From assembly GCA_000165345.1 (NCBI GenBank), contig CM000432.1, positions 352,001 to 416,000 of the forward strand: 64,000 nt of DNA, in the 5' to 3' direction. The translations under genes were made by a program, and so were the position numbers. The notes beneath the pieces were generated by a model. The model made no database searches. It had not been told where the DNA came from and saw only the letters and a program-made list of their open reading frames with translations. How positions within the stretch are numbered: position 1 is the first letter of the stretch; every line of letters starts with the position of its first letter. This document shows, piece by piece, positions 3,025 to 60,629 of this stretch.

Positions 3025-3707
3025 GATCCTTTTCAAACTAGTTTTTGTTCATAATTCACTCTGATAGTAGTAATTATTAGTATTATTATTAAAATGTAAT
3101 TGTCTGTCAGTTCTCGTATATTAAATTGTTACAAACAATAACACAAGTAATAAGACTGATAGTATTTGTACTTAATTGCAATGATGACTCTAATATAATA
3201 TAAATAAATTTAATTAATTAATTTCTTTAAATTCTCTTTAAATACGACGAGTGCAATTTTAAAGATACGTATATTAATCTTTTAAGTTCCTTTTTATCCT
3301 CTCCAAAGAGTAATTTTTGCAAAAAAAAGCAAAGAAATTAAAAAATGTAAAAAGAGCTAATTTTTTTCGTTTTAAAGGAAAGGATTTGTTTTAATGATAA
3401 CAAGTTTTTGAGAAAGAAAATTCTAAAGAATAGAAGCTAAATCTAATTTATAACAATCCACATTAAAATTAATTAATTAAAAACCCCATCTTTTATTTAA
3501 AACTAACCCTAATCTATATAAATTAGACAATTAAGTAGCTTTACCTTTATTTCTATTACTATTTATTTTTTTTAATATTTATTTCCCCACAACTTAATTG
3601 TCCATTAAATTCAAATTGCAGTACCGGCATTCCCGCCATTTCCCGCCAAGTCAAATAATATTATAAGAGACGAGTATTTCAAGGCAAAAAAAAATTATTA
3701 AAAAAAA

Positions 3708-3733
3708 CTGTTGGGGGTATTGGCGCCAAAAAC
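3708..3733. promoter_or_regulatory. G-box plus E2F-like element CTGTTGGGGGTATTGGCGCCAAAAA
   Basis: A GC-rich island in AT-rich intergenic DNA between the divergent ABC transporter and pyrophosphatase genes. Nearby at 3621-3650 is GTACCGGCATTCCCGCCATTTCCCGCCAAG, which holds two tandem TTCCCGCC E2F cores. Confidence 0.5.
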
Positions 3734-4271
3734 AGATTTATTTATTAAACAAAACGTAGTGAATGAAATTAAAAAAGTTGAATATTTTAGACTGGAAATA
3801 TATATCTATATATATATATATATATTAATTTAAAATGATTAATTAGAATAATCAAAAAAGAGGGGGAAAAATAAAGCATTTAAGGAAATAAATTCAAAGT
3901 TGGAGGGTGAATTTGTAAATAGCGGGTAATGGATTACTATTAATATTGACATTAGACTAAATGATAACGAATCAAATTAGAGAGAAAGCAAAGGAAAAAA
4001 AAATAATAGTCAAGAAAATATTAGTATTAATAAATTAAAATAGAATTTTGGTTTAGACCTTTAAATTGGTTTGTATCATCTTTCTGAATCCCCCCCTAAG
4101 CTAAGAAAGAAGGCTAGGTTTAGGAATAATAAAGGATTGATTAAAAGATTAAATTGTGAATAAAAATCTTGAATTGAATCCTTTTTTTATATTCGATTTG
4201 GTATTTTACAAGGTACTAGATCAGAAATATAATTGAAATTTTTTAAGAAAAGTACAAATCTTCAAGTAAGA

Positions 4272-5423
4272 ATGAGTACTGAATACAGAGTGGGTTTTGC
4301 CTCGAAAGAGGATATTATAGAAAAAAGTACTTATGGAGAATGTGAGGATAGGACAAAAAGCTTGAGCTTCAGTAGTGATGTGAATAGTATTACTTATGAT
4401 GAAGCATCTTCATCAAGTGAGGAATATCCAGAATATAGTTTATTACGCACTCAAAGTTCTTTAGCTCCACCAATTGAGGCTTCTGCAATAGTAGATGTAG
4501 AAGAAGCATGGAAAGCCTTATCTAAAGAATTAGAAGAAAGTCATTCTAAACCAACAATTCGTACTCTTGGGACAGTTTTTGTAACAAGAGAAGAGGTTGG
4601 AACAAAAGATTCAATTGAATATAGATTATTTTATAAGAATGAAGATGGCTATAAGATTTCTCCATGGCATGATGTACCATTATGGTTTTCAGAAACACCT
4701 CTTTTATATAATATGATAATTGAGATTCCAAAATTAACAAATAAAAAATTTGAGATAAATACAAAAGAGGAATATACACCATTATATCAGGATCGAAAGC
4801 TGGAAAGACTTAGAACCTATCCAGGTCCAATTCCTTGGAACTATGGTGCTTTTCCACAAACATGGGAAGATCCAAATAAGAAGGGAGATGAGAATGTTGA
4901 TTTTAGTCATGGTGATAACGATCCACTGGACGCTGTTGAAATTGGAGTTGGACCTCTTCCACGTGGAACAATTATACAGGTAAAAATTTTGGGTTGCCTT
5001 GCTTTAATTGATGATGATGAATTGGATTGGAAAGTTGTATGTATTCGTGTTTGTGACCCACATGCATCACAGCTAAATGATATTACTGATGTTGAGAAAT
5101 ATTTCCCTGGTACTATAGATAGAATTAGGAGATGGTTTGGGCTTTATAAAGCAGTTGAGAATAAAGATGTTGCAAAGGTTAATATGTATGGACATTTTGG
5201 AGAGCCTCAATCAGCAGAGTTTGCTCATTCAGTAATTTTAGAAACTCATCATTCGTACTTACGTCTTATTAGAGGAGAGGCAATGAATTCATCATCATTA
5301 TGGATACCAAAAAGTCTTTCGAATAATGGAGAAACAGAATTGTGTCATACAGTATGTTCCACAAATAGCACTGCTACAGTATCTAGCAATGATATTGGAG
5401 GGCTTTCTGTAAATGATGATTAA
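4272..5423 (+). CDS. Soluble inorganic pyrophosphatase (family I) with N-terminal extension
   Basis: The track ORF 4233-5423 starts at a TTG; the first ATG is at 4272. The core motifs of a eukaryotic PPase are present: ...YNMIIEIPKLTNKKFEI...DNDPLDAVEIG... Confidence 0.9.
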   Translation: MSTEYRVGFASKEDIIEKSTYGECEDRTKSLSFSSDVNSITYDEASSSSEEYPEYSLLRTQSSLAPPIEASAIVDVEEAWKALSKELEESHSKPTIRTLGTVFVTREEVGTKDSIEYRLFYKNEDGYKISPWHDVPLWFSETPLLYNMIIEIPKLTNKKFEINTKEEYTPLYQDRKLERLRTYPGPIPWNYGAFPQTWEDPNKKGDENVDFSHGDNDPLDAVEIGVGPLPRGTIIQVKILGCLALIDDDELDWKVVCIRVCDPHASQLNDITDVEKYFPGTIDRIRRWFGLYKAVENKDVAKVNMYGHFGEPQSAEFAHSVILETHHSYLRLIRGEAMNSSSLWIPKSLSNNGETELCHTVCSTNSTATVSSNDIGGLSVNDD

Positions 5424-6019
5424 ATGATAACATTATATTTATCACAATTTTTAAAGTTCAAAATTCACTATAATATGACACTTCTTTCTTTATTTTCATA
5501 CGAATATTGTATTGAGCTGTATTTAATTATCATTTTAACCTTAATATTACTATTCAATAAGAACTACTTACTAATATTATAAATTCACTAAATTTACGTT
5601 CATTCTTATATTTAGATTGTCAAGATTTATGAAATATCAGGACGATTATCCATATACTTTAACTTTTTTTAATAGATTTTTATCATTTTATTGTTATATA
5701 TACTTAGATTACTTATTCAATATCCAATTGTTTACGCTGCCGACAAATTAAACTTCATTTAGCAATAAAAGGAAATATATTTATATAATTATTTGGCGCT
5801 AATTACACGTAAATTATTTCTTGTTAGAGTAAATGAGAAAGAAAATTAACAAAGAGAAGAATGTTGATCATTGAATGAAAAAAAAATTTTGTAGAAATTG
5901 AATAGTTTGTGTATATTAGTTTTGACAAAACTAAATGATGATTTTTTTTCCTTTTTTTAAATTTAGTAATAAACACTATTTAAAAATTGTTCGTGAATTT
6001 TTAATTTACATGCATAAAA

Positions 6020-6044
6020 CTGTGGGGAATTGGCGGGAATTTTG
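6020..6044. promoter_or_regulatory. G-box plus E2F-like element CTGTGGGGAATTGGCGGGAATTTT
   Basis: Same architecture as 3708-3733, about 90 bp upstream of the 6133 gene start. TTGGCGGGAA is a classic E2F core. Confidence 0.5.
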
Positions 6045-6132
6045 AATGAAGGATAGGGATCGGATATATTTAATTAATTGCTGTAATAGAATTTTCATTG
6101 TTTTTTAATTATTCTTTTTTCTTTATTTAACA

Positions 6133-6837
6133 ATGAATAAGGTATCAGATTATAGTACAAAAGAAGAATCTCAGGACTTAACAAAAGTGAAGAAGGAAAA
6201 ATCAACTAAATCGGGTATATTAAAGCATGTTTTATTAGGATCTATAATTGCGGTAATCTTTGGATGTGTATCTAAATATTACTTTTTTGATAAGATAGTT
6301 TTAACAGAAGAGAATTTACCAAATATATCATCAATTAACCAAAATGAAGTGAATATTGGAAATAAAGAAAAAACCTTAACAAAAGGAACTTTTGGAGAAG
6401 AAGAATATATGGAGTTGCTTCAAGATGATAAAACTATTACTTTAGAACAGATTACACAAGATGATTCTTTAGAAGATAATGATGAATTAATGTTTAATCA
6501 TGAAGATGAAGCTTTATATGATCAAATAGAGGACGATTATCGTGATGATGAAGCTGAAGATGAGAGCGAAGATGGAGAAAATGAGTCGCAAATAGATTCT
6601 GAAACTTTAAAAAGAATGTTAAAAGAAGATGTACAATTGGAACTAGATGAAGGTTTTGCTGCAAAAGATTTTGAAAATGAAGAGAGTATTGATGTTATTG
6701 ATGATGCAGAAATTGATGAGTATGAACATGAAACTGATGATGACATAACTGACAACAACTGGTCAGATGATGAAACTGAACTAAAAAAAATGGAGAATCA
6801 AAAAGAACAAGAACAGAAACAAGAAAAACAACAATAA
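6133..6837 (+). CDS. Hypothetical single-TM protein with highly acidic C-terminal region
   Basis: ORF of 234 aa with one hydrophobic segment (LLGSIIAVIFGCV) and a D/E-rich tail. No family recognised. Confidence 0.55.
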   Translation: MNKVSDYSTKEESQDLTKVKKEKSTKSGILKHVLLGSIIAVIFGCVSKYYFFDKIVLTEENLPNISSINQNEVNIGNKEKTLTKGTFGEEEYMELLQDDKTITLEQITQDDSLEDNDELMFNHEDEALYDQIEDDYRDDEAEDESEDGENESQIDSETLKRMLKEDVQLELDEGFAAKDFENEESIDVIDDAEIDEYEHETDDDITDNNWSDDETELKKMENQKEQEQKQEKQQ

Positions 6838-7026
6838 GCTCAACATTATTCACTTCAACATAAGTAGAATTAATATAATTTATTTTATTAGACTAAATTT
6901 ATGACCACTTTTCTTATTTCTTTCTTTTTTCTGCTAATTCTCTAAATTTCTATACCGGTATTAACATAATAAATGCATGTTTTGCCGCCATACGTGTCAA
7001 AGAAAAAAAGTAAATCAATGGAATAT

Positions 7027-8340
<1,314 letters not shown>

Positions 8341-8584
8341 TTTTTCTTTTTATTTTTCCTTATAAATAATCTTTTAAATTAACAATAGGTTTGTAAATTA
8401 GTCAAATTTAAGATTAATTCAATTCTTTATAATATATTATACTCGGAAATAATAACATTATACAGATTATTCTTGGAGATAAAAATATACTCTAAAATTA
8501 TATTTACTTTGGTTCATTTGTTAATATAATTTTCTACTTTCAAGATTGAGATTTGAATCTTGTTTAACTCAATAAAATTCAATA

Positions 8585-8708
<124 letters not shown>

Positions 8709-8872
8709 CTAAGAAGAATTTAAAATTTAATCCTTTTCACAAATTTATTCAAAATTCTTTATTTTATTTCGAGGTTAATTTTATTAACTAGAAAAAAATT
8801 ATTTATAATATATTACCTTTAATCATTTTATTTAATTTTATTAATTAATATAATTTTATTATTTAATTAATT

Positions 8873-8897
8873 CGGTACCATTTTTGGCGCCAAAACG
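8873..8897. promoter_or_regulatory. Composite CGGTACC plus perfect E2F palindrome TTTTTGGCGCCAAAACG
   Basis: About 70 bp upstream of the TAP42-like start, in the divergent promoter shared with the methyltransferase. A near-identical composite occurs at 25017-25038. Confidence 0.6.
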
Positions 8898-8965
8898 AAT
8901 AATTATGATCACAAAATTAAATTTTTGAAAAAATAAAAAAGAAGAAATATAATGAAATTAATATA

Positions 8966-10105
8966 ATGGACTTCCATCAAATATCTGAGAAGTTTTTAAA
9001 CTTATTGAAAAGATATTATAAAGAAATTTATGACGATTTTTCAGAGTCAGATTTGGATGAGATAATTAAATTGAGGGATGAAATTTTAGATTTTGGGAAT
9101 GAAATAGATTTTTCCAATATAATTTCAAAGAATGAAGAAGTTGAAGATTTGAATACAAATGACATAAAATATTTATTATATTCATATATAAAAGCAGAAA
9201 CAACAAGGTATGTAAGAGATCATAATGTACCAAAAGAACGTGTAGAAAGAAGAAATGATTTAAATGAAATAATGGAATTATATTTACAATTTTTTAATAA
9301 TACCCTTGAAATTAGAAATACAATTTTTAAAGATACCTTGGATTTGGTTGACAATTCCCAAATTAAAAATTTATTTATTGAAGAAAGTGAGAAAAAAATA
9401 ATAAAAGACACCAGGCAAATAAAGATTATGAGATTTAAAAAAATTAAAGAATTAAAATCCTCATTATCGTTATTTTTTAAATCTGGATTTAATTTAACAG
9501 ATGAAAGTGAAAATAGAGATATGATTTTGAAAGCAATTAACTTATTCTTTTTAGAATCTATTGAACAAGTTTCTATGATAAACAACGAAATTAATATATT
9601 AAATTATGCAATTAAAGAAGAATTTACAAAGACTTCTGAAAATGGAGACAAAAGATATGGAGATAATAACATTAATAATATAAATAACAAGATACAAAAA
9701 AATTGTCCTCCATTAAATATAAAACATATTGCACCAAATATTCGCTATTTAACATCCAAAGAAAATACTAGCAATACAGGATTTACATTTAAAGATATTA
9801 ATAATGGAACAGCTGGAGTTGTAATAAATGATAGAGAAAACTTCTATTCAAAAGTGTTTGGGCCAAGCCATACTCTTCCTACAATTTCTATAGCAGAAGC
9901 TGCTGATATGGAACTTAAAGAAGCTTTGGAACAAGAAAAATCTTCCAATATTGCTAGAAAGAATAAAGAAGAGAGGGATCAGATTTTACATGATAAAGAA
10001 TATAGTAAAGAAGAAGAAGAAGATGAACTTAAAGCCAGATCATGGGATGACTGGAAAGATCTAAATCCAAAAGGTCATGGAAATACTATTAGAAATCGTG
10101 GCTAA
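8966..10105 (+). CDS. TAP42/alpha4 (IGBP1)-like PP2A regulatory subunit
   Basis: The C-terminal motif ...RSWDDWKDLNPKGHGNTIRNRG resembles the conserved TAP42/alpha4 C-terminus (..EWDDWKD.NPRG.GN). Overall length and charge fit the family. Confidence 0.7.
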   Translation: MDFHQISEKFLNLLKRYYKEIYDDFSESDLDEIIKLRDEILDFGNEIDFSNIISKNEEVEDLNTNDIKYLLYSYIKAETTRYVRDHNVPKERVERRNDLNEIMELYLQFFNNTLEIRNTIFKDTLDLVDNSQIKNLFIEESEKKIIKDTRQIKIMRFKKIKELKSSLSLFFKSGFNLTDESENRDMILKAINLFFLESIEQVSMINNEINILNYAIKEEFTKTSENGDKRYGDNNINNINNKIQKNCPPLNIKHIAPNIRYLTSKENTSNTGFTFKDINNGTAGVVINDRENFYSKVFGPSHTLPTISIAEAADMELKEALEQEKSSNIARKNKEERDQILHDKEYSKEEEEDELKARSWDDWKDLNPKGHGNTIRNRG

Positions 10106-11224: not shown

Positions 11225-12147
11225 ATTACAACTTGTAATGTACTTGTTACTTTGTTTACAAACAAGACACTATTTCAGGAAACTATTGAAAGATAGATAA
11301 ATGAGAAAACACTACACAACTATTTTACTATTATTATTATTACCATTTTTCTTTTTTTTCCAAGTATTAAATACCCAAACTGAAATTATTCATTATTAAT
11401 TCATTCCACACGTTGGCGCCTAAACTATTTTTCACTGCATCACTGCAATACCGGTAATGTGGGGGGGTACGCGCCAGATATTTAAACATTTTATTTTTTA
11501 ATTCAAAAGAAATTATAAATATCTTAAAACAAAAGAAAAAAAGAATCTCACAAATTAATGATTTCAATTCAATTATATTTTTCTTCTTACTCATTCTTTT
11601 CTCACTGAAACAATATTCTACCCTTCCCAGTTTTTTTCTCTTTCAATAACCCTATCTCTAAAATTCATACTCAGTCGCCACCGTCTCGTCTCCACGGTCA
11701 TCGCTCGACAATGTATAGTGGTTGCAGCGTAAGGCAATACGTAACAACATGAAATGAAATCGTAATCTCGATCTTTGCAACGATATAGTTAGAAAGAAAA
11801 AGAGTTAAATAAGTGATGGGGAATAATAAAAAAGTTGAGAAATAGTATTTTGTATTTAATATTTAATAATAATTAATTAATATTAATAATAATAGTAAAT
11901 TAACTGATAACTTAAACTTTAAAGTTTTTATTCTTGAATAACACACTGGATTAAAGCATATTTTAAACAATTTGAAAACATAGATTTTTAAAAATAGGGC
12001 TTTTTTTTTTTAAAGAGTTATTAATGAAATAAAAGTGAAATATTGGAAAAATTACATTAATATTACAATATAATCATTATAATTCAAATTAAAATTAATT
12101 TAATTATAGGAATTAAATAATACTATGTTTAATGATAAAATCTAATA

Positions 12148-19255: not shown

Positions 19256-19758
19256 TAATAACTTAAATCTCTTTTTTTTTAATTCGAGGAAAAAAAAGAG
19301 TTCCAAATTATTATTAAATTACTGAAATTTTATACAATTGAATTCTTTTGAATTTACATATTTTTTAATAATAAAGATATATGAAGAAGAACATACATTA
19401 ATAATATTTAGTATATAACCAAACTAGTGTGTAATCTTTTTTCTTTTTTTTTCAATTTTGATAATCTTCTCTAATTTGTTTTTATATTTAATTTGCATGC
19501 GCTTGTCCACATTGAAATAAAATGTCAACTGCAAGCATTGCCGGTATCAACTTCAATAAATGCAAGTATTTTTTTAGGAAAAAATATAACAAAGGCGCCA
19601 AATAAATAATAAAATGACGTGGCGAGCGCCAAGCAAGGTTTGCAGTTTTATTTTGACATTGAGAAAAAAGATTAAAAAAGAAAAAGAAAGAACAAGGAAA
19701 AAAAATAAGAAGTAACCTTTAAATGAAAAAATAGGTCAAGCTTCAATTTCTCATCAAA

Positions 19759-25016: not shown

Positions 25017-25038
25017 GTTTGGCGCCAAAACGGGTACC
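25017..25038. promoter_or_regulatory. E2F palindrome TTTGGCGCCAAAACG plus GGTACCG
   Basis: About 300 bp upstream of the corrected primase start and about 170 bp upstream of the 25206 gene. Its reverse complement, CGGTACCCGTTTTGGCGCCAAA, matches 8873-8897. Confidence 0.6.
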
Positions 25039-25205
25039 GAAAATTATTTTGAAATTTTTATATTGGTTATTATTTGCAGGTTAAATTTCCAAGTTAGGTG
25101 AGCAAGTAGATAGGATAAAAAAAAAGAGATCATTTTTGGTTTATTATAGTATAACTAAATAATATAAGAGTGGTGTGTGTAGAGATTTTTGATTAGTTTG
25201 AATAA

Positions 25206-27623: not shown

Positions 27624-27704
27624 AATTAATTCCCATGTAATTTTTCCCTCCACTAGAATTTATTTAAAAATTAATATATTCAATTTTATTACTATCCCCA
27701 CGCA

Positions 27705-27723
27705 GTGGCGCCAAAAAACCCGC
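27705..27723. promoter_or_regulatory. E2F-like GTGGCGCCAAAAAACCCGC with adjacent C-box ATCCCCACGC
   Basis: Lies between the divergent HN1-like gene and BRX1. Confidence 0.45.
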
Positions 27724-32374: not shown

Positions 32375-32474
32375 NNNNNNNNNNNNNNNNNNNNNNNNNN
32401 NNNNNNNNNNNNNNNNNNNNNNNNNNNNNNNNNNNNNNNNNNNNNNNNNNNNNNNNNNNNNNNNNNNNNNNNNN
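32375..32474. other. Assembly gap (100 N)
   Basis: Run of n characters. The track ORFs 32292-32564 and 32347-32535 are artefacts spanning it. Confidence 0.99.
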
Positions 32475-33512
32475 GAGACCCCATACGGTACTCATATGTA
32501 TTTGGTGTTAATATTGCATATGTGCCTGCAAACATATGAACAAGTTTCCTATCAATTAAATTAAATTAAATTGTATAAAGTTATAATGTAATTCATAAAA
32601 TTCTTTTTTCTTTTAATAACCATTAAAAAAAAAGAATAAGAAGAAAATATACTTTGGATAATAAATGTATTGGTATGGGTAAGTAGTAGAAATTCAATTA
32701 TCAATATTTGAAATGAATTTGTGAAGAATTAAAAAAAAAAAATGTTTTCTTTTAATACAAACAAAAAAATGAATATTAGATCTCTTTTTTTATTTTGCCA
32801 TTTTTTTTTTTCAATAAATAAATTATTTTATGTACTGATGAATATATGAAAAATATATATATTACACTATTTTATATTAATCAATTTTTATTCACTCAAT
32901 CTCATCTTATTGTTGAATTAAATCCTATACCTTAAACATTATTATCAATATCTTATATATTTTCTCCATAATACAGTAATTTACCTTGTATGCATTATAG
33001 AAAAATAATTCGTATACTGTAGAAACAATATTACGAAGACAAAGAAAAGTGCAAGTAGATAAAATTCCGAATCCATTTTTCTTTTTTTGAATGTTAGATA
33101 TATCTATATCTATATATATTAGATATATAAGATTTAAGAATTGTTTAATTAATTGGTACCAATACTTGACTCATTTCCCCCCCCCCCCCTTAGTTATTTG
33201 ATTTTTGACATATTTAGTAATTACATTAATAAATAAAATAAAGTTGGCGCTCAAAATATTCCAAATAATTAATAAAATTCTATTTACGTGCAAATATTGA
33301 GTCAAATATTACATTAAAATTTCATTACAATAAATTCTTTAATTTTTTTTTGAAAAATACTCATTAATATTATAAGTATAGATATATACATATTCATAGC
33401 TGTATTGAATAGTCTTAATCAAGTATAAAGTATTTCAATTAAGAATTTTATAATAAAATTGGAATTATTTATTATTATTTTTAATTAGTTATTAAGAAAG
33501 AAGAATATTACT

Positions 33513-52375: not shown

Positions 52376-53100
52376 ATGAGAAAATAAAATGTTATTGAAG
52401 CTTAATTTCTTTTTTTTTTTTTTGTCGTAACTTCTTTAACCAACATAAATGTTACGAATAATAGGAAGAGTAATAAGTTATCATATAATATCAACTTGAA
52501 GTTATTATACTTTGAAGAGATATAGTGAGATTAAGATACATACATAGAAAAATAGAGTGTGAAAGGCTGAAACGAGAACATGTATTAGGAGAAAAGGCTA
52601 AACTTGATATTTATTTTATCAAATAATATATTTCACCAGTTAATAATTTTTGATAAACTTTAAATAGAAGAAAGGATTTAATTATGTTAATGAAGAGACT
52701 TATTCTATTATGATAACTTATAAATTAGATCTAAAGGTTACGACAAGTTAACCAAATAAAATAAATTATATTAACTAATATTTATGTTCGTTAATATAAA
52801 ATAATAATGGTGAGATTGAATGCTTAAACCTTTAAATTCATTTGCAATCAAATTATTTAAAAAGTTTTAATAAAAGTGTAATTAAGTTTAATTTGGCATT
52901 AAGCCAAACCATTATAAATTTAGAAATACAATTCGAACTACTTTACAGTTTCTTTTTTAAGATAAATTAATTAATTATTAATAATTTCATACATATTTAA
53001 AATAAATAATCTTTTTTGTTTCTTTATTTATTAGAATTTTTTTCTTTTTACTATCTTTTATTACAAATCACAATTTGAATAATAGAAAAATTAATGAAAA

Positions 53101-53137
53101 TGACGTCAGTTTTTTACCCGCCACACGTGTGGCGGGT
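53101..53137. promoter_or_regulatory. CRE palindrome TGACGTCA plus a 22-bp perfect palindrome ACCCGCCACACGTGTGGCGGGT (CACGTG core)
   Basis: Two perfect palindromes within 37 bp, about 460 bp upstream of the 53598 gene. Confidence 0.5.
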
Positions 53138-53597
53138 CATAAGTAACAGATTGAATTGAAAATACATGTATAATGTGGGGAAAAAATAAGAAAGAAAAAT
53201 AACATATTTTGTAATAAGGAAAAGAAAGAAAAAATAAGGTAATAAGGGAATATAATTGCGAAGATAAATGTGTATTAATAGATGATAAGTTTGTTATTTG
53301 CAGAGATTAAATAATAAAGAGAAAATAATTTGAGCAGTAATTTAGTGAAGATTAATTGAAAGGACTGAAGATAAATAAGGTTTATTAACCTTTTATTTTT
53401 CTTCCCTTATTCTCTTTCATCTTACGAAATAAAGGTGACAATTTTTTTTTTGATTAATAAAGTGGAATAAAGTATATTAAACGTGAAAACGTATTAAGTA
53501 AAAAATAAGGGATTAAACGACTAATATATAATCAGAAACTTCCAATAATTAAACAAAAAACAGAAAATTAAAAAATTTTTAATAAATAATTAATGAA

Positions 53598-56500
53598 ATG
53601 GAACAAGAAAATACAAAAACTTTGAATACAATCAATAGCACGCCAATTAGAAATGGTAATTTGTCATCAAAGGATGTGAACTTGGAAACACCAAATAAAA
53701 GTTCATCAAGAAGTATTGGCAGTGCAGGTGGAAGTTCATCAGTTAGACGTAGTAGTAGATTATTGAAAAAAAATGATGAAAAATCCGGAGGAACTGGACC
53801 TTTAACTCCTCAACTGGGTGCACCAGGAGGAACACCATATCTGTTGAGATCAAAATCAAGAGAAACATTATCATCAACAGAAGCAAATTTAAGGAAGAAT
53901 GCAATGACCATGCCACCATTGAATTTGAAATCAACCAATGATTTGGAAGGAAGTAGTGAGTTCTATCAGACCAATGTAGAAACAAATAATGAAAATAGTA
54001 ATAAGGTTGGAGATGTATATAATATATATTCGACTCCAAGAAAGAGAGTTAGAGGTACTGAAAATGGCTTCAATAGTAGTAACAATAATAATAATATCAA
54101 TACTGGATTAGATTTGGATAGAGATCCAGGCTCTGAAAGCCAGATAAGAAGCTCATCAAGAAGAAAAGGAAATATAAAGAATACGCCTGTGAGCAAAAGT
54201 AGAAGAGTAATTGATGAAGACTCTGCTGTTAAAGATAGGAAGAGTATATTAAAACAGTACGATCCTGATGGTATTAATACATCAACTATGAATATAAAGA
54301 CCCCTAAATCTCAGAAGAAGGTTCAGTTTGGTACAAAAAATTTGATAATAATAGACGAAAATAAACAAGATTTGAATATTGATAAATTGATTACAGAGAG
54401 TGATAATGATGAAAATGGTAATATTCAAGACAAAAGATTTGCGGATGATCTGACAGTTGATAGAATGAGTATATTAAGTGAGCTTGATGATGCTGGTACT
54501 GGTCAGATATATAATTTCCCATCATTGGAGGAATTGATAAATACAAAAAAGACTGAAAATACTTCAACACAAAAAGTTTATAACAATGATATTGTTGATA
54601 GTGAAATTTCTAATCGATTTGCAACTGTTAATAATATTCATAATTATCATCATCGTGAAAATAACCAAGATAATAAAGCAACCAATCCAAGTGATTTATT
54701 CATCCAAAATGAAAATTCTGGAAAAGATAAATCTATAACTGATCAAGATGGAATTATTGATTGCAATGATCAGAAAAATCTTGATAGTGAGTATATTAAA
54801 ACAAATCGTAATCAAGTTCAAGATGAAAATAATATAGAGAAGAATATTGAATTGACTGATCAGATTAATATATCTGATTATTCAATAAATTGTAGAGATT
54901 CAATAGCTCCAAATTTGCCTGGAGCATTTTTATCAGTAGTTATGCAAAATTTATCTTCTGTAAATTTTCCAGAAGAAAAAAAACCAGAATCAGATGAAGA
55001 TATTAAAATTCCTAAATTAGAATTTAATGATGATAACATTGAAGATACTATAAATAAGAAGAATGATTTAGATCAAGATGTTAGTCTTAAAGAACAGAAA
55101 CCTGATCAAGAACCAACTATGGAAAATCAATCAGTATTTGAAGACAATGAAATTTATATTGAGGCTAAGAAACAGATAAATAAGGAAGACGAAATTATAT
55201 TAGAAGAGAATAAAGAAGATATTCAAAATCAACAAGAACAGGTACAATTTGAATTTGAAAGTGAAAATGTAGAGAATCAAATTCAAGAACAATTGATCAG
55301 AGAAGAAAATAAAGAATTTACTACAGTAGAAATAGTTACAGAAAAAGAATCGATTAATGAGAAAAATCATATTGAAGAGAGTTTGTGTCATCAAAATGAT
55401 AATTTTGAGACCCAACAAATAGTTTTAACAGAAACTTTAACAATCTTGAAAGATAATAACAATAGACTGTCAAATATTTTAATTACTCCAAAAAGAAATA
55501 ATATTAGCAGCATTGGATACATTAATAAGTTATCCCCATCATCTGAAACACTTTTAAAATCATTGAATAATACAAAATCTATTTTGAATATTACACCACA
55601 AGGTTATACATGGGAGGAATTTCAATCAATTTTGAATTTGAATTATACAATGGAAAATTATTTTGGTATTTTGGAATTTGATGAAATTGAAAACAATCAT
55701 CAAATCAAGGATAAATATATTGAAGAAGAAAGTATGGATAGTAAGTTATTATTAGTACATATACAAAATATTTTAAAAGATGATGGAAATTCTGAGAAAA
55801 TTCAAGAAATAGTGGCTAAGTACTCATCTGAAATTATTAATTCAATAAAACATCAAATTTGGGATGAAATAGAAAAGAATATATTAATTAAAGAGTTTAA
55901 TGGTGAAAGTCATGAAAGATATAGTGAAAATCTATCAAAATTCTCAACTAGTGAAATAGCAACATTAATGGCAATTATTGTGAATAAAAGTAGATATGGA
56001 AATAAAAATGATGAAAAAATAAAGAATGAGTTATTTGAGAGAATATCTGGATACTTTTTTGGAGAAGGTAGAAATATTTTTCTTAAAAAAGCTATAATAG
56101 ATTGGAAAGAAAAAGTAATTTTTCCATTAAAGAATTCAATAATTAATAAATTTGAAGAAATGATCAAGATATTTATGTTAAAAAATGAACAAATTATGAA
56201 TAATAAGAATAGAATTCAGAATTCAAAAGTATTATTATCAACTTTAGAATCTTGTAAGATTTCTGAGATGCATGTATATGAAACTTATTGGAATGCAATG
56301 AGAATTGTACATGAAAATATTGTTAATTATAAAGAGGAAATTGAAAGAGTTAAGAATTATTTAAATATGATGGATAAGAAAAAGAGAAATATTTCAAGAT
56401 TATTATTAAAAGAAGAAGAATTGTATAATAGTTTAATAATGGAATTAAATGATTGGAAAGTAAAAAAAGATAGTTTAAGAAATAATTTAAATGATTTACG

Positions 56501-59409: not shown

Positions 59410-60629
59410 ATTTATGACTTAGATTAAGTTAAGTTTAAATAAACTTTTATTCATAAAATTATTATTCAAATATTTATATTATTAGTGATAATTTTTTATT
59501 CTTAACTATTCTTTTGCTTAATTTATTTTACTGGAATTTCAGGTATTTTTTAAAAACCTTTGAATAATTATTCTGTTTCAGATTATATTTCATAATCAAT
59601 AAGAAAATATTCTTTTTTTACTATTTATATATATTGAATGATATCTTACCACTTTTATATGCCATATCATAATTTAATTAGTATAGGAAATTTTATATGC
59701 CAATAATACAGGAAAAAAAAAAATCAAGTAATTCCATAAAGTAGGTATTAAGGATCCTTTTGTATTTGAATTCAAAGAAAAGTTTCTTGGTTCATATCTT
59801 TAATATAGTCTGAAAATTATATAATAAACATTTATATTAAGTGTGCAATATTGACGCATAAATTTTAATTTAATATTATATATTAAATAAAATAAAAATA
59901 TATTGCTAATTTTATTTCAAATAATACTTCAAAATATTATTCCCATCTTATTCTATTAGCTTTAATTTGGTTGATTTGAGTTAATCAATTTCTTTTAATG
60001 AATCTTGCAAATTCTTCAAAAAGAACAATAATTCTGTTATAAATACAAATCTGTTGATGGAAATTAATTCATTTATTTATTTGAATGAATTAACATTAAA
60101 TTGTTAGTTTTAATTTATTAAATAAACTCAATTTTTATATTTTATTATAAAAATAAAATTGTATTGAAATAATTTTTTTTTTTTCATGCACAAAATTAAT
60201 ATTTTGGAAAATTACGTGTAAATAATTTTAATACCGGCACATCCACATGTAAAAATAATAAATAATACGAGCAAAAAAGAAAAAAAAGAGAAATTAGTAA
60301 AGATAAATTTAAATAAATATTTTGAAATAAACTAATTGAAAACGTTGAAACTTCCTATGTAGGATTTCCTTTTTATTTACTTAATAATCATAATTCTTTT
60401 TTTAAATAAAATACATCTTTTTTGATGGAAATCTGGCCATTACTTTCTTGTAGTATATGGTTAGTAATTAAGGCTTAATTTTGAATCATCATTGTTTCAT
60501 GAAAATAAGTATCATAGTTGTTTAAAAAAATTTATATCAAGTATAAATAGAGAAATCATTTAAAAAATTTTAACTATAAAAATTATAGGTTACAGAATAA
60601 GTAAATGAAGATGATAGTAATATCTGCAA

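Follow-up and report, generated by a model that had tools for sequence, protein, structure and literature searches.

Gene control in Cryptosporidium is, to our knowledge, little understood, and almost no cis-element of these parasites has been functionally tested. The locus studied here raises the question of whether two classes of promoter motif that lie side by side in it, a G-rich G-box and an E2F-type core, form one cooperative unit with a fixed syntax, or whether each is read and maintained separately. An initial annotation of this DNA had reported three promoters with a G-box placed shortly upstream of an E2F core and suggested that, if the juxtaposition was fixed, it would point to a cooperative module. 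Should E2F sites indeed carry a partner at a preferred short distance, this would be the first promoter-syntax rule for Cryptosporidium and would suggest how one very common motif, E2F, gives many expression patterns.

The canonical E2F/DP site is TTTSSCGC. Both motif classes are over-represented upstream of C. parvum genes, as the initial annotation stated (PMC3734150; PMC4117751). [quoted passage not shown] The sequence G[T/C]GGGG is bound in vitro, on protein-binding microarrays, by the ApiAP2 domains of cgd8_810, cgd2_2990 and cgd1_3520 (PMC4117751). Furthermore, E2F is the dominant motif of ATAC-seq open-chromatin peaks at C. parvum promoters, whereas the open chromatin of sporozoites yielded no AP2 motifs. 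Both classes and their over-representation are thus already published, and the sites described below are new, well-conserved instances of them. A rule for the spacing of G-box and E2F was not encountered in the literature searched, and the texts of Mullapudi 2007 and Cohn 2010 do not mention adjacency of the two.

The window and the loci compared with it

The DNA analysed (the window, 64,000 nucleotides) is AT-rich, with 27% G+C, and its ORFs encode housekeeping proteins typical of Cryptosporidium: pyrophosphatase, TAP42, V-ATPase subunit a, Tsr1/BMS1, DNA primase, Brix, Spb1 and an SNF2 helicase. It also encodes a carnosine N-methyltransferase-like protein (CARME, Pfam PF07942), which is 97% identical to its C. 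hominis orthologue. Positions 3133-9837 showed 100% identity to CP029783.1, and the 234-aa ORF at 6133-6837 is coded identically on CP029783.1 and CM109964.1. Judged by its sequence, the window is C. parvum-type DNA.

Intergenic DNA of the window, with ORFs running off its ends counted, comprised 23 intervals and 22.6 kb in total. Cross-species comparison was done with loci of 21 kb each from C. meleagridis, C. ubiquitum, C. canis, C. felis and C. xiaoi; the loci available for C. serpentis (13.7 kb) and chipmunk genotype I (11.5 kb) were shorter. Gene order is kept across the orthologous loci, and the per-site alignments included up to six other Cryptosporidium species. Independent parvum-type sequence of about 30 kb was taken from two regions that had not been chosen for composites, namely 8.3 kb past the right end of the window (L014) and 21.8 kb around HSP60 on another chromosome (L015), and was complemented with two orthologues of the HSP60 region (C. 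ubiquitum and C. canis). The three sites of the initial annotation are referred to as sites 1, 2 and 3, or the discovery sites.

Several structural features of these loci should be added. In C. xiaoi synteny breaks directly past the orthologue of the 234-aa gene (L011, 11983-21437), where a hydrolase-HSP60-kinase region replaces the pyrophosphatase and ABC genes; in C. hominis-type assemblies this region lies on a different, 1.3-Mb chromosome. The window itself contains a scaffold gap of 100 N at 32375-32474, the left side of which maps to approximately 354-361 kb of CM109964.1 and the right side to approximately 925-946 kb, in opposite relative orientation. Since the two sides are 570 kb apart on that chromosome-level assembly and oppositely oriented, the window crosses a scaffold join, which represents a misjoin or else an inversion of about 600 kb relative to CM109964.1. 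A homopolymer of 13 C is found in intergenic DNA at 33177-33189, and two divergent tRNA-Pro genes (35545-35617, minus strand, and 36166-36238, plus strand; anticodons AGG and TGG) lie about 550 nt apart within an intergenic region of 2.25 kb.

The three sites and the fate of their halves in other species

All three sequences were found in the window by direct reading (Table 1). The start of site 3 had been placed 4 nt early (at 11455). The sites are intergenic and upstream of plus-strand ORFs, at 546, 101 and 678 nt before the next ATG, respectively, in agreement with the promoter-like setting claimed for them. The claimed distance of 2-4 nt between the halves was likewise confirmed: TATT separates the G-run from GGCGCC (3722-3727) at site 1, AATT separates TGTGGGG from GGCGGG (6032-6037) at site 2, and TA lies between the end of the G-run (11467) and CGCGCC (11470-11475) at site 3, which makes gaps of 4, 4 and 2 nt.

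Table 1. Positions of the sites, their halves and neighbouring motifs (window coordinates unless a locus is named)
Feature	Position	Strand	Sequence or remark
Site-1 cluster, G-box	3585-3591	-	TGTGGGG; 41 nt to closest E2F core; kept in C. meleagridis, C. ubiquitum and C. canis
Site-1 cluster, TACCGG and two tandem E2F sites	3622-3649	-	TTCCCGCC, TTTCCCGCCAA; conserved across species
Site 1	3708-3733		CTGTTGGGGGTATTGGCGCCAAAAAC; direct reading
Site 1, G-rich half	3713-3717	+	GGGGG within CTGTTGGGGG; G-box-like
Site 1, E2F half	3720-3729		palindrome TTGGCGCCAA; fits Motif 3 DTTGSCGCCH
Site 2	6020-6043		CTGTGGGGAATTGGCGGGAATTTT; direct reading
Site 2, G-box	6021-6027	+	TGTGGGG, Motif 2 core; ~106-112 nt before ATG at 6133
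Site 2, E2F half	6030-6039	+	TTGGCGGGAA, Motif 4-like
Site-3 cluster, second E2F site	11413-11420		TTGGCGCC after CACACGT; kept in 5 species
Site-3 cluster, palindrome	11449-11456		TACCGGTA; 1 nt upstream of site-3 TGTGGGG, within same conserved block
Site 3	11459-11477		GTGGGGGGGTACGCGCCAG; direct reading
Site 3, G-box	11458-11467	+	TGTGGGGGGG
Site 3, weak E2F-like half	11470-11477	-	CTGGCGCG on minus strand
Extra close pair	27696-27712		CCCCACGCAGTGGCGCC; G-box on other strand; window scan, absent from initial annotation
Loose pair	44870-44885		whole-window scan
Palindrome, 20 nt	53117-53136		CCCGCCACACGTGTGGCGGG; two E2F cores flank CACGTG
[AG]TACCG[GA] sites	3621-3629, 6952-6960, 11448-11456, 19541-19549, 60231-60239		19541-19549 as reverse complement
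[AG]TACCG[GA], further sites	8873-8880, 25032-25039, L015:1488, L015:20235

The G-rich halves were less uniform than had been claimed. The TGTGGGG type, in which they resemble the C. parvum G-box-like motifs and the Plasmodium heat-shock G-box, is present at sites 2 and 3, but not at site 1. There GTTGGGGG, a 5-G run, does not match G.GGGG, G[T/C]GGGG or DTGTGGGG; it lies outside all published G-box patterns, missing each of them by one base or one insertion. Among the E2F halves, all of them candidate E2F/DP binding sites, ATTGGCGCCA of site 1 fits Motif 3 exactly (10/10) and ATTGGCGGGAAT of site 2 agrees with Motif 4 in 10 positions out of 12. These two resemble the published C. parvum motifs also in being intergenic, A/T-flanked and conserved in orthologous promoters. 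Site 3 differs from them, its half CTGGCGCG being a weak match (8/10 for the reverse complement TCTGGCGCGT).

Site 1 belongs to a conserved cluster halfway along the 1.4 kb that separate the divergent ABC-transporter and pyrophosphatase genes. The cluster starts with TGTGGGG in reverse orientation, continues with TACCGG, a tandem pair of TTCCCGCC and GAGACG.G, which is invariant, and ends with the G-run and TTGGCGCC. The TTGGCGC columns were invariant in all five species aligned, and the G-run was retained in three of the five, as GTTGGGGG in C. meleagridis and GAGGGGG in C. canis; it is degenerate in C. ubiquitum (GAGGG) and absent in C. felis, which therefore has the E2F site without a G-run. 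It should be added that GAGACGAG at 3667-3674 is invariant in five species and recurs as GAGACGAGACG (11682-11692, reverse strand, tandem) at the start of an ultra-conserved block near site 3; the element resembles the published 'unknown' motifs RMGACG and VYGTCBC. A (TA)n-type microsatellite (3800-3826) lies directly downstream of site 1.

At site 2 the opposite half persists. TGTGGG(G/T) has stayed at the same position, some 100 nt before the ATG, in five species (the window species, C. meleagridis, C. ubiquitum, C. canis and C. felis), and the E2F half in the window species and C. meleagridis only (2/7 species). In the remaining three of those five the position of the E2F half is taken by G/A-rich sequence, leaving a G-box without E2F. 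The AAAACT prefix of the site is not conserved in the alignment. Site 2 is the cleanest of the three candidates for reporter or binding assays.

In having another element within a few nucleotides of an E2F-type core, the sites recall the metazoan CDE/CHR tandem element, in which an E2F-like CDE, a 4-nt spacer and the CHR TTTGAA have strict spacing and order. By eye, TGGCGG-GAAT-TTTGAATGA of site 2 resembles CDE-N4-CHR. Unlike in that element, spacing, order and strand vary here and either half can be lost; moreover, TTTGAA is not kept even in C. meleagridis (GGCGGGAATGATAATGA), and we therefore treat the resemblance as chance.

At site 3 the G-box was retained in five of seven species (window, C. 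meleagridis, chipmunk genotype, C. ubiquitum and C. xiaoi), changed to TGTGTGG in C. canis (TGTGTGGCGC) and absent in C. felis. The E2F half corresponds to TTGGCGCG in C. meleagridis, to GGGGGCGCCAAA in C. ubiquitum and to GTGGGGTTTGGCGC in C. xiaoi, so that an aligned GCGCC/GGCGC core is present in four of seven species including the parvum type; C. canis and C. felis have a shifted GGCGC, and the chipmunk genotype has lost this half. The gap is 2-3 nt in the parvum type and C. meleagridis and 3 nt in the distant C. xiaoi, and the halves overlap in C. ubiquitum (GGGGGCGCC). The whole block ACTGCATCACTGCAATACCGG(T/C)AATGTGGGG..GCGCCA is highly conserved, with CACTGCAATACCGG(C/T)A identical in the parvum type, chipmunk genotype, C. 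ubiquitum and C. canis and one base off in C. meleagridis (CGCTGCAATACCGGTA).

Approximately 200 nt downstream of the site-3 cluster, past a CT-rich tract, lies a non-coding block of about 115 nt (11676-11790) that is nearly invariant in all seven Cryptosporidium species compared, even in C. xiaoi and C. felis, in which the flanking DNA can hardly be aligned. Its sequence is GTCTCGTCTC..GTCATCGCTCGACA, followed by about 20 variable nt and AAGGCAATACGTAACAACATGAAATGAAATCGTAATCTCGATCTTTGCAACGAT. The block had no match in Rfam even at E<=5, RNAalifold returned compensatory pairs on neither strand, single-sequence folding was not unusual (z-scores -0.1 and -0.8), and an exact-pattern scan of metagenome contigs gave zero matches; these searches lend no support to a known or structured RNA. 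The block may be part of an unannotated transcript driven from the site-3 promoter.

At each of the three sites, at least one species has one half without the other. Taken together, the separate retention of halves and the drift of spacing in orthologues indicate elements that are functional-looking and conserved, each half being maintained on its own. This conservation bears directly on the reading of the G-run and GGCG as one extended site of 16-18 bp for one factor, for instance a zinc-finger protein or a variant of E2F/DP with extended specificity. Sites 1 and 2 do share a long similarity, AAAACTGT(T)GGGG..ATTGGCG, but the halves are conserved separately, the spacing shifts between orthologues, the AAAACT prefix is unconserved and about 34 of 40 E2F cores have no adjacent G-run. 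We consider a single extended site highly improbable and reject it on the independent conservation of its halves.

Recurrence, order and spacing of the pairs

Close juxtaposition recurs as had been proposed, with 3-4 pairs in the window. At 27696-27714 the G-box is on the minus strand (CCCCAC) and is followed by a 5-nt gap, GCAGT, and GGCGCC within TGGCGCCAAA. The sole pair in L014 (L014:3804) reads GGCGGG-CTTT-GTGGGG, in reversed order, and pairs of differing order or strand were also found in C. felis (GGGGG-ATTT-CCCGCC, L010:8417) and C. meleagridis (L007:6917). The discovery sites agree among themselves in order, strand and gaps of 2-4 nt, but across all instances, including site 3 of C. 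ubiquitum with its overlapping halves, neither order, orientation nor spacing is constant. In the HSP60 region (21.8 kb) there were no composites among 10 intergenic E2F cores, and its orthologues contained one overlapping case in C. ubiquitum and gaps of 2, 9 and 19 nt in C. canis. Lineage-specific G/C-runs have arisen 4-5 nt from orthologous E2F sites in C. meleagridis, the chipmunk genotype and C. felis, each independently. In the first two they are separate gains of C-runs next to the E2F site at 11413-11420, on opposite sides of this shared site.

Both motifs were concentrated in intergenic DNA (E2F cores 22/26, G-boxes 19/29), which accounts for 35% of the window. To assess chance, G-runs were placed uniformly, either across intergenic DNA or within their own intergenic region; 3-4 close pairs (<=10 nt) were observed against 0.36-1.1 expected, with p of 0.007-0.058 depending on motif definitions. 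Under local-jitter nulls (+-50 or +-100 nt), which are conservative by construction, the excess was not significant (p 0.08-0.37). Evidence from the window alone is thus suggestive at best; moreover, the pattern had been picked after the fact.

Gaps were then pooled for all G4/C4 runs within 60 nt of the nearest E2F core. In parvum-type DNA including the discovery sites, 6 of 13 gaps measured 3-7 nt, where 1.05 would be expected (p=3e-4), and the range of 8-20 nt was empty. Exclusion of the three discovery sites left 3 of 10 at 3-7 nt (p=0.04), and with unselected loci of other species added the count was 3 of 19, which is not significant (p=0.19). These counts come from a small sample, with about 30 kb of intergenic DNA of the parvum type and loci of about 20 kb from other species, which leaves little power to reveal a modest spacing rule or to rule one out. 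The pile-up of gaps at 3-7 nt and the independent gains of G-runs are a hint of a real preference for abutting, which could reflect direct protein-protein contact and not mere packing.

Such contact is the essence of a true composite, in which an ApiAP2 G-box binder and an E2F/DP heterodimer would touch at 2-5 nt. They would bind cooperatively or, as a stage switch, in mutual exclusion, and abutting pairs would then be favoured by selection. The shared order, strand and gaps of the discovery sites, the excess over uniform placement, the void at 8-20 nt in parvum-type DNA, the retention of both site-3 halves as far as C. xiaoi and the gains of G-runs in three other species all speak for it. It is nevertheless unlikely, because single halves persist in orthologues, spacing ranges from overlap to 5 nt in both orders and on both strands, and the G-run of site 1 is not a consensus G-box. 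Furthermore, the excess is not significant in independent data, the gaps of 9 and 19 nt in the unselected C. canis locus fill the apparent void, and the tendency to abut E2F is no weaker in other motif families (see below).

The same figures have to be weighed for pure coincidence, i.e. two common GC-rich motifs that happened to be adjacent three times in 23 intergenic regions and were picked post hoc. The local-jitter nulls, the empty HSP60 region, the pooled independent test and the location of all discovery sites within the first 12 kb of the window are in its favour. Every site, however, lies within a block conserved across species, and together with the composition around E2F cores described in the next section this makes coincidence quite unlikely.

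Neighbours of E2F cores and the organisation of the promoters

G+C content near E2F cores was 23.5% at 1-5 nt (the A/T flank) and 34% at 6-10 nt, vs a background of 22%. The peak at 6-10 nt was reproduced in the independent loci alone (36% vs 24%, p=0.006) and in C. meleagridis, C. ubiquitum and C. canis (p<0.005); C. xiaoi and C. felis showed the trend less strongly. Among 5-mers located up to 16 nt from E2F cores, enrichment was highest for ACGTG, ACACG and ACGTC (p ~4e-6 to 6e-5), followed by GGTAC and CGGTA and then by CCCAC and CCCCA. The G-box is therefore one of several E2F neighbours and not the most enriched one. Both the reproducible GC peak and the approximately 12-fold enrichment of CCCAC count against coincidence. 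Individual cases of other neighbours are TCGGTACC-N-TTTTGGCGCC at 8873, which is repeated on the reverse strand at 25021, and TGCATG-TTTT-E2F at 6974, L015:7923 and L015:13610.

With these results the idea that a fixed juxtaposition marks a cooperative module did not hold up: orthologues keep single halves with changed spacing, order and strand vary elsewhere, the excess weakens outside the discovery sites and the G-box shares its position with several motif families. The elements are real and known; a fixed cooperative module is not shown. Probably, the sites are separate known cis-elements tightly packed around E2F hub sites in very compact promoters. The three sites would then be ordinary cases of two known classes, E2F/DP-type sites (TTGGCGCC, TTGGCGGGAA) and G-boxes (TGTGGGG). 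Core promoters of Cryptosporidium would be very compact and built around E2F sites, and it is for this reason, we propose, that the sites stand side by side. GC-containing elements would tend to adjoin the A/T flank of the E2F core at a distance of about 4-10 nt, with G-box, ACGT-core motifs, TACCG/GGTAC and TGCATG as neighbours in that position. The halves would be recognised and maintained separately, adjacency being common, not obligatory, and free of a fixed order, strand or exact spacing. As to the proteins binding the sites, we can only infer their identity.

A more specific organisation may tentatively be considered, although we regard it as doubtful: an E2F-anchored grammar with the E2F/DP site as a hub and, adjoining its A/T flank at some 4-10 nt from the core, a 'partner slot' that is filled by various factors. 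Occupants of the slot might be a G-box ApiAP2, an ACGT-core binder, a TACCG/GGTAC binder and a TGCATG ApiAP2. If so, the partner would set stage specificity, and the pairs of G-box and E2F would be its first recognised case. The idea that E2F and a partner element keep a preferred short distance is absent from the literature searched and is weakly supported here. The present yield consists of three well-conserved, precisely mapped candidate sites, and no new mechanism is established.

The TACCG-containing neighbour belongs to a recurrent intergenic motif, [AG]TACCG[GA], which is often palindromic (TACCGGTA or GGTACC) and absent from the 25 published motifs. Of its approximately 13 distinct sites, five have an E2F core no more than 10 nt away and two share TCGGTACC-N-TTTTGGCGCCAAA; at sites 1 and 3 the motif shows conservation between species. 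Another dense cluster is located at 53095-53181, some 420-500 nt before the ATG at 53598, and consists of TGACGTCA (a perfect CRE-like palindrome), the palindrome CCCGCCACACGTGTGGCGGG and, 38 nt further, TGTGGGG. Finally, a promoter-like cluster at 6950-7000, TACCGGTA .. TGCATG-TTTT-GCCGCC-AT-ACGTGTCA, falls within the 189 bp between the convergent stop codons of the 234-aa ORF and CARME, a position which, with this motif content, suggests a putative start of an antisense or non-coding transcript.
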